Below are positions 18,750 through 20,944 of a stretch of DNA of 21,472 nt, in pieces. Location: the IMG/VR virus record IMGVR_UViG_2740892229_000021; one strand, written 5' to 3'. The position numbers were made by a program, and so were the translations under genes. Each line of letters opens with the position of its first letter. Positions within the stretch are counted from its first letter, which is position 1. The stretch comes from a virus. Lineage: Duplodnaviria; Heunggongvirae; Uroviricota; Caudoviricetes. Under the pieces are notes generated by a model that saw nothing but the letters and a program-made list of their open reading frames with translations, did not search any database and was not told the origin of the DNA.

Positions 18750-20944
18750 ATGAGCACAAAATTCAAAACCGTTATCACCACTGCCGGTGCAGCAAAGCTG
18801 GCAGCGGCAACCGCACCGGGAGGGCGGAAGGTCAACATTACCACGATGGCCGTCGGGGATGGCGGTGGTAAATTGCCTGTCCCGGATGCCGGACAGACCG
18901 GGCTTATCCACGAAGTCTGGCGACATGCGCTGAACAAAATCAGTCAGGACAAACGAAACAGTAATTATATTATCGCAGAGCTGGTTATTCCGCCGGAGGT
19001 GGGCGGTTTCTGGATGCGTGAGCTTGGCCTGTACGATGATGCGGGAACGCTAATTGCCGTGGCAAACATGGCCGAAAGTTATAAACCAGCTCTTGCCGAA
19101 GGCTCAGGGCGTTCGCAGACCTGCCGCATGGTCATCATCGTCAGCAGTGTGGCCTCAGTGGAGCTGACCATTGACACCACAACGGTGATGGCGACGCAGG
19201 ATTACGTTGATGACAAAATTGCAGAGCACGAACAGTCACGACGTCACCCGGACGCTTCGCTGACCGCAAAAGGTTTTACTCAGTTAAGCAGTGCGACCAA
19301 CAGCACGTCTGAAACACTGGCCGCAACGCCGAAAGCGGTAAAGGCCGCGTATGACCTTGCTAACGGGAAATATACTGCGCAGGATGCCACCACAGCGCGA
19401 AAAGGTCTTGTCCAGCTCAGTAGTGCCACCAACAGCACGTCTGAAACGCTCGCCGCAACACCAAAAGCGGTAAAAGCAGCATATGACCTGGCTAACGGGA
19501 AATATACCGCACAGGACGCCACCACAGCGCGAAAAGGCCTTGTCCAGCTCAGTAGTGCCACCAACAGCACGTCTGAAACGCTCGCCGCAACACCAAAANN
19601 NNNNNNNNTCAGCTGAGTAGCGCCATCAACAGCGATTCTGAAACGCTCGCCGCAACGCCGAAAGCGGTAAAGGCAGCATATGACCTTGCTAACGGGAAAT
19701 ATACCGCACAGGATGCCACCACGGCGCGAAAAGGTCTTGTCCAGCTCAGTAGCGCCACCAACAGCGATTCTGAAACGCTTGCGGCAACGCCAAAGGCGGT
19801 AAAGGTCGCGTATGACCTTGCTAACGGGAAATACACTGCACAGGATGCCACCACAGCGCGAAAAGGGCTTGTTCAGCTCAGTAGCGCCACCAACAGTGAT
19901 TCGGAAACGCTGGCCGCAACACCAAAAGCGGTGAAGTATGCCTATGACAATGCTGAAAAACGTCTTCAGAAAGATCAGAACGGTGCGGATATTCCTGATA
20001 AAAGATTATTCCTGCGCAATATTGGTGCAACAAATTCAACAACCATGTCTTTTAGTGGTGGTACAGGATGGTTCAGGCTGGCAACTGTAACCATGCCACA
20101 GGCCAGTTCCGTGGTTTACATAAGTCTGATTGGTGGTGCTGGATATAATGTTAACTCCCCTATGCAGGCTGGTATATCTGAACTTGTTCTTCGTGCGGGA
20201 AATGGAAATCCAAAAGGTCTTACTGGTGCGTTATGGCGACGGACATCGGTTGGGTTTACTAATTTTGCATGGGTGAATACATCCGGTGATACCTATGATG
20301 TTTATGTTGAAATAGGTAATTACGCCACAGGTGTTAATATTCAGTGGGATTATACCAGTAACGCCAGCGTAACGATTCATACATCACCATCTTATACAGC
20401 GAATAAACCAACAGGCCTGACAGATGGAACTGTATATGTAATTTACAGTTCGCACATTAAACCGACTGCTGCTGATGTTGGGGCGTTGTCATTATCTGGA
20501 GGTCAATTGAATGGTGCACTGGGCATCGGAACATCCAGTGCTCTTGGCGGTAACTCGATTGTTTTGGGTGATAATGACACGGGCTTTAAACAAAATGGCG
20601 ACGGTAATCTGGATGTTTATGCTAATAACGTCCATGTTATGCGCTTTGTCTCCGGTAGCATTCAAAGTAATAAAACCATAAATATTACGGGGCGTGTTAA
20701 TCCCTCGGATTACGGTAACTTTGATTCCCGCTATGTCCGGGATATCCGGCTTGGTGGTGCTGCCACATACAAACCAGCGAACAATGGCATGACATGGACA
20801 CATCAGGCACCGTCCGGGTGTGTATATTCTGGCATTATTGTTCAGGATACAGGCTCAAACTCTGCCGATAACATTGGTGGCGTATATTACAGACCGGTTC
20901 AGAAATACATTAACGGGACATGGTATAACGTGGCACAGGTATAA
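18750..20944 (+). CDS. H: Tail fibre protein H (conserved N-terminus, 44-aa tandem repeats, AT-rich C-terminal receptor-binding region); interrupted by an assembly gap
   Basis: ORF from 18750 (GAGGAA Shine-Dalgarno) runs into the N-run at 19599-19608 and resumes in another frame, open from 19610 to the stop at 20944. The frame shift is explained by the arbitrary gap length; the true length and repeat number are unresolved. Confidence 0.75.
19281..19940 (+). repeat. 132-bp (44-aa) tandem repeats inside the H coding region, at least 5 units
   Basis: Units begin at 19281, 19413, 19545 (truncated by the gap), 19610, 19742 and 19874 (partial). Unit consensus is QLSSATNS(T/D)SETLAATPKAVKAAYDLANGKYTAQDATTARKGLV; the copies before the gap carry NSTSE, those after carry NSDSE. 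Confidence 0.85.
19599..19608. other. Assembly gap (10 N) inside the tail-fibre repeat array
   Basis: Run of 10 n characters directly visible in the sequence, within the repeat array. Confidence 0.99.

Follow-up and report, generated by a model that had tools for sequence, protein, structure and literature searches.

The Phage_fiber_2 repeat (Pfam PF03406, 'Pf2') belongs to a long-known, curated family. Descriptions of it exist for lambda Stf and for the EPclB proteins, collagen-like fibre proteins of EHEC prophages (PMC3368898). The same family is represented in Mu gpS, whose structure (PDB 5YVQ) is the only solved chain that contains one unit. In these proteins the repeat occurs as one or a few dispersed copies within other architectures. 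Gene H of Peduovirus P2 encodes a 669-aa tail-fibre protein (gpH, NP_046775) with two copies of the same 44-aa repeat, starting at residue 178. Our literature search returned descriptions of the PF03406 family and of fibre engineering, and no paper on copy-number variation of the repeat in P2-type H proteins. Such variation is an unsurprising property of a known repeat family.

We analysed a window of 21,472 nt (the whole stretch of DNA under study) that carries the tail-fibre gene H of a P2-like E. coli prophage at 18750-20944. The gene is of an ordinary kind, with an assembly artefact in its middle. Unlike the dispersed copies of lambda Stf, the EHEC fibres and Mu gpS, its repeats follow one another strictly head to tail, in six or more copies with a 44-aa period. 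We put at roughly 85% the probability that H is an intact P2-type gene with this as its central shaft-repeat array, in which unit 2 was recently duplicated and the resulting repeat broke the assembly. The features on which this reading is built are collected in Table 1.

Table 1. Features of the J-I-H-G region; positions are those of the window.
Feature	Position	Strand	Evidence or remark
Baseplate gene J	17308-18216	+	Pfam PF04865 Baseplate_J, E 2.1e-23; position as P2 J
Tail protein gene I	18209-18739	+	Pfam PF09684 Tail_P2_I, E 6e-56
Gene H, 5' part to the gap (283 codons)	18750-19598	+	PF12571, E 2.2e-59; PF03406, three matches
Unit 1	19281-19412	+	NSTSE type; codon register
137-nt exact direct repeat, first copy	19407-19543	+	Second copy starts at 19539 and enters the gap
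Unit 2	19413-19544	+	NSTSE type; codon register
Unit 3, first 54 nt	19545-19598	+	NSTSE type; codon register
10-N placeholder	19599-19608		Replaces 77 + 132n bases, most likely 77
Gene H, 3' part	19609-20944	+	Frame 1 open, 444 codons; PF03406, three matches; stop 20942-20944
Unit 4	starts 19610	+	NSDSE type; codon register
Unit 5	starts 19742	+	NSDSE type; codon register
Unit 6	starts 19874	+	NSDSE type; codon register
Tail-fibre assembly (chaperone) gene G	20948-21472	+	PF02413 Caudo_TAP, E 1.4e-33; position as P2 G

The label of gene H, given by an earlier sequence-only reading of this DNA, is justified because domain matches (PF12571 and PF03406), gene order and similarity to P2 H all agree. 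The N-terminal domain scores 200.2 bits against PF12571 (cut-off 23), with residues 1-151 covering profile positions 1-150 of 150, and the first 848 nt of the gene are approximately 95-97% identical to P2 gene H and other Peduovirus records. The order J-I-H-G is that of the annotated P2 V operon (V-W-J-I-H-G), H following the Baseplate_J and Tail_P2_I genes and a gpG-type chaperone gene of the Caudo_TAP family lying directly 3' of it. The rest of the window is consistent with a P2-like prophage and includes integrase, Cox, gpA, portal and terminase genes.

The 5' part of H encodes the tail-collar fibre domain (aa 1-151), a linker, units 1 and 2 and the start of unit 3. The 3' part encodes units 4-6, the receptor-binding region and a conserved C-terminus. 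Compared with P2 gpH, the N-terminal 176 aa are nearly identical and the conserved C-terminal end ...QKYINGTWYNVAQV is shared. By contrast, P2 gpH has two units where the window gene has at least six, and the presumed receptor-binding region between the array and the C-terminal end is unrelated in sequence. The C-terminus also has matches in the PDB, to Mu gpS and to a short tail fibre, and residues 105-175 of Mu gpS align to the last unit and the linker that follows it.

Two views of the array give the same period and coordinates as had been proposed for it, namely 132-bp (44-aa) in-frame tandem units. Tandem Repeats Finder reports a period of 132 on both sides of the gap, at 19290-19598 (2.3 copies, 92% matches, score 527) and at 19610-19936 (2.5 copies, 89% matches, score 521), and the codon register places the unit starts as in Table 1. 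The program also reports a spurious period of 329, which equals 3 x 132 - 67 and is the value expected if ten Ns stand in for 77 real bases (an offset of -67). The repeat signal is well above chance: the PF03406 matches score 179.3 bits before the gap and 182.8 bits after it (gathering cut-off 22), and each half has three such stretches. The suggestion of at least five units stands as a lower bound and is conservative, since six motifs are visible: four complete 132-bp units, the 54-nt start of the unit that enters the gap, and a last unit whose sequence departs from the others after about 66 nt.

The two subtypes that had been distinguished also exist. The motif is ...LSSATNSTSE... in each of the three units before the gap and ...NSDSE... 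in each of the three after it, the first of which has AINSDSE. What separates the subtypes is one T/D residue together with DNA differences that are mostly synonymous. Between units 1 and 2 there are 16 nt differences and no amino-acid difference, and other pairs of older units differ by at most 2 aa. Because the differences between the older units are almost all synonymous, the comparison indicates strong purifying selection on the protein sequence of the unit. Two open reading frames on the reverse strand, at 19280-19570 (96 aa) and 19609-19854 (81 aa), overlap the array and are most likely by-products of the repeat.

The interruption at 19599-19608 is the sole N run in the window, consists of exactly ten Ns and lies inside the array, as had been noted. 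The pre-gap part of H measures 849 nt, and the frame that opens at the ATG at 18750 closes on a complete Lys codon at 19598 (...ATPK). On the other side, the T at 19609 completes a Val codon; the open frame restarts at 19610 and runs on to the stop codon at the end of the gene. In the repeat register the missing residues are AVKAAYDLANGKYTAQDATTARKGLV, which corresponds to 77 nt or to 77 + 132n. The change from frame 0 to frame 2 is fully explained because the gap omits 77 + 132n nt (2 mod 3) while the ten Ns count as 1 mod 3; indeed, these lengths predict the change that is observed. The ten Ns interrupt the H reading frame in the window, and any fill of 77 + 132n nt joins the two open halves in frame. 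No frame loss beyond this effect and no downstream decay was found in H: all 444 downstream codons are open and 100% identical to those of intact alleles.

Gap-free copies of the gene are already in public databases. A protein search with the post-gap half returned mostly 709-aa proteins and four of 753 aa. One of the latter (P0002) is exactly the pre-gap protein followed by 26 aa and the post-gap protein; no difference from the window is detectable on either side of the gap, in protein or in DNA, and P0002 provides the 26 aa (77 nt) that the window lacks. Its DNA is present in two independent E. coli assemblies, GCA_027553685.1 (locus L007, on a 205-kb contig) and GCA_038074095.1 (locus L008). 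Both match window positions 18750-19598 and 19609-20944 without a single mismatch over 849 + 1336 nt, and in both the gap is filled by the same 77 nt, GCGGTAAAAGCAGCATATGACCTGGCTAACGGGAAATATACCGCACAGGACGCCACCACAGCGCGAAAAGGCCTTGT. The filled gene has 2262 bp and encodes an intact protein of 753 aa with six units. The surroundings are also alike, with 99.84% identity over the upstream 3.8 kb and 100% identity in G. The ORFs at 18750-19616 and 19610-20944 had been suspected of being one gene split by an artefact. The missing 77 + 132n nt and the intact ORF of the two gap-free assemblies bear this out, and from these comparisons the apparent frameshift is best seen as an assembly-gap artefact inside a duplicated unit, with H as one intact gene.

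The filled gene shows precisely where the break lies. Its units 2 and 3 differ at one of 132 nt; every other pair of full units matches at 114-119 of 132. The longest exact direct repeat in the gene of GCA_027553685.1 is 137 nt long at an offset of 132, occupying gene positions 658-794 and 790-926. All 77 bases absent from the window (gene positions 850-926) fall within the second copy and finish where that copy finishes. The window resumes at gene position 927 (19609), the first base that differs between the copies (GTT versus GTC). Put another way, the gap boundary coincides with a 137-nt exact repeat, and the flanks continue the array in register. An example of a k-mer specific to unit 2 is GACGCCACCACAGCGCGAAAAGGCCTTGT, and the two junctions, ...GGCCTTGTC/CAGCTCAGTAGTGCC and ...GGCCTTGTT/CAGCTGAGTAGCGCC, would lie 132 nt apart.

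These positions suggest a simple sequence of events. Unit 2 would have been duplicated in tandem recently, with unequal recombination or replication slippage involving adjacent units as the probable cause, and this would have created the 137-nt exact repeat. A short-read assembler would then have been unable to cross the repeat and would have written a fixed 10-N placeholder, dropping 77 (or 77 + 132n) nt. The last step is what we would expect from the way short-read assemblers work, and the recombination or slippage step is a putative mechanism of unit gain and loss. The starting point appears to be at hand in a common five-unit allele of 709 aa (P0008; WP_000104685.1 in the closed genome of strain 41). 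Its N- and C-terminal parts are the same as those of the window gene and the shared units are identical in DNA, whereas the duplicated unit 2 is absent and its own unit 2 ends in GTT, not GTC. The window allele is probably this allele plus a very recent tandem duplication, because the strain 41 gene (L003; 710 codons, counting the stop) shares all its units and their order apart from the extra unit 2.

A different account of the break takes the Ns at face value, as ten real unread bases accompanied by a 67-bp out-of-register deletion, so that H would be a pseudogene ending at the TGA at 19614-19616. The literal ORF from 18750 does stop at 19616. Moreover, frameshifted H genes exist; that of E. 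coli PCN033 is annotated as such and loses its frame inside the array. However, the gap has its right edge precisely where the 137-nt repeat ends, which is expected of a repeat-induced break and not of a deletion. The 444 codons that follow are all open and match intact alleles at 100% identity. Exactly 10 N is also a usual placeholder for gaps of unknown size. On the position of the edge and the state of the downstream half we rejected the ten-real-bases account, which we consider extremely improbable.

Assemblers also break at multi-copy IS elements, and an IS element or other foreign DNA hidden in the gap could likewise disrupt H. Nothing in the window supports such an insertion directly. 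The flanks of an insertion would adjoin in register or overlap by a target-site duplication; instead, 77 nt of register are missing. The break also coincides with an exact tandem repeat, and identical alleles elsewhere are uninterrupted. We rejected this candidate too, and give it next to no credence.

With the intact gene as the preferred reading, it is likely that this genome has exactly six units. The obvious competitor keeps the same intact gene and lets the gap conceal one or more extra identical units, for a total of seven or more, which would be the longest P2-type H array seen. Every fill of 77 + 132n nt preserves the frame. With three or more identical units the exact repeat would reach at least 269 nt, probably beyond short reads; a repeat of that length would account for a break here and not in GCA_027553685.1 or GCA_038074095.1, although shorter reads could do so too. 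Against this, the two assemblies whose flanks are 100% identical to the window have exactly six units, and neither the 120 closest proteins nor the 98 related loci include an allele of seven or more. We regard a longer array as unlikely. All six-unit alleles that we found come from draft assemblies, which could under-count perfect repeats. A 120-nt probe for the junction between unit 2 and its duplicate had no 100% match in 5,426 closed E. coli genomes (best 99.2%), and there was no six-unit allele among the closed-genome alleles examined.

A further possibility is that the culture was a mixture of copy-number alleles and that the instability of the array, not read length, broke the assembly. 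Tandem units identical at 131 of 132 nt lend themselves well to RecA-dependent or slippage-driven gain and loss, and close relatives show independent duplications of different units. Most database alleles, on the other hand, are stable five-unit forms found in hundreds of contigs (P0051, for example, in 206), and we think a mixture quite improbable. Taking the two possibilities together, it is also unlikely that the gap hides two or more extra identical units, or the culture several copy numbers, and that this PF03406 array is therefore actively expanding and longer than any other known from a P2-type fibre. If it were so, the array would be a fast length-tuning locus for the fibre shaft, which could then reach, for example, receptors under O-antigen or capsule of varying depth.

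That copy number varies among relatives had been raised as a point to check, and it does, from one to six units. BLAST with the whole gene or a 1-kb array merges overlapping repeat pieces, and we counted units in individual loci and proteins instead. P2 gpH and P2_AC1 have two units, E308 has four, and strain 41 and Z1322HEC0002 have five. The 77 full-length H genes from IMG/VR are distributed as two with one unit, 25 with two, two with three, 39 with four and nine with five. Among 18 H genes from representative genomes of other species, one unit was found in five, two in eight, three in four and four in one. The range is therefore one to five in these 95 related full-length genes. It is four, five or six in the 120 closest proteins, of which 113 have five units, four have six, three have four and none has seven or more. 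The spacing of 44 residues is kept in all but two of 98 H genes, and in each of these two a single spacing is off by one residue.

The four six-unit proteins have the unit patterns AAABCD, AABCDE (an offset duplicate), ABCCDE and, in another background, AAABCD again. Because they duplicate different units, the array has expanded independently several times. In the related loci, three of 116 adjacent pairs of full units are identical at 128 or more of 132 nt, and by this comparison recent unit duplications are rare but recurrent. Three H genes from IMG/VR (L016, L038 and L014) have adjacent units identical at 132/132, 131/132 and 128/132 nt, further recent tandem duplications in arrays of four and five units.

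As an in-frame module, the array sits between a conserved domain for baseplate attachment and a variable receptor-binding end, and alleles that are otherwise nearly identical differ in their number of modules. Each unit would add a fixed segment to a trimeric shaft, and fibre length would follow copy number. The earlier proposal that copy-number change alters fibre length is reasonable, as a putative consequence. An AlphaFold2 single-sequence monomer model of the linker and 2.5 units was of very low confidence (pLDDT 43.5, pTM 0.29). Natural alleles with two, four, five and six units exist, which makes a putative tuning of fibre length or host range easily testable. The locus is a further example of a shaft-repeat number that varies (1 to 6) among P2-type fibres sharing attachment and receptor-binding ends. 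For annotation, H is best entered as one intact tail-fibre gene, not as two fragments or a pseudogene, and ten Ns within an in-frame array of 132-bp units should not be taken for a frameshift.

Several minor observations concern the related loci and the rest of the prophage. In E308 (L001, 521-967) and strain 41 (L003, 1-712) H and G are intact, and J, I and O are annotated as truncated pseudogenes; these loci are prophage remnants that keep an intact pair of fibre and chaperone genes. In E. coli PCN033 (L002, 1501-3209) the H gene annotated as frameshifted is 1709 nt long (2 mod 3) and its frame is lost after ...LSSATNS; it is either a real pseudogene or the product of a sequencing error in the array.

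Within the window, two plus-strand ORFs at 5882-6748 (288 aa) and 6777-7022 (81 aa) occupy a stretch flanked by replication gene A and portal gene Q, a site of non-essential cargo in P2-type phages. They had no match in Pfam, NCBIfam or PADLOC, and their sole matches are PHROGs 13198 and 17350, of unknown function. Just past the position that corresponds to the window end (21472), the two gap-free assemblies carry a DUF6602 gene (451 aa) and a SIR2_2-domain gene (504 aa), located after G on the opposite strand (L007, 6068-8262; L008, 3479-5674). A DUF6602-domain gene is also found 3' of G in the closed genomes of strain 41 and L004. The DUF6602/SIR2_2 pair may be defence-type cargo at the P2 Z/fun position.
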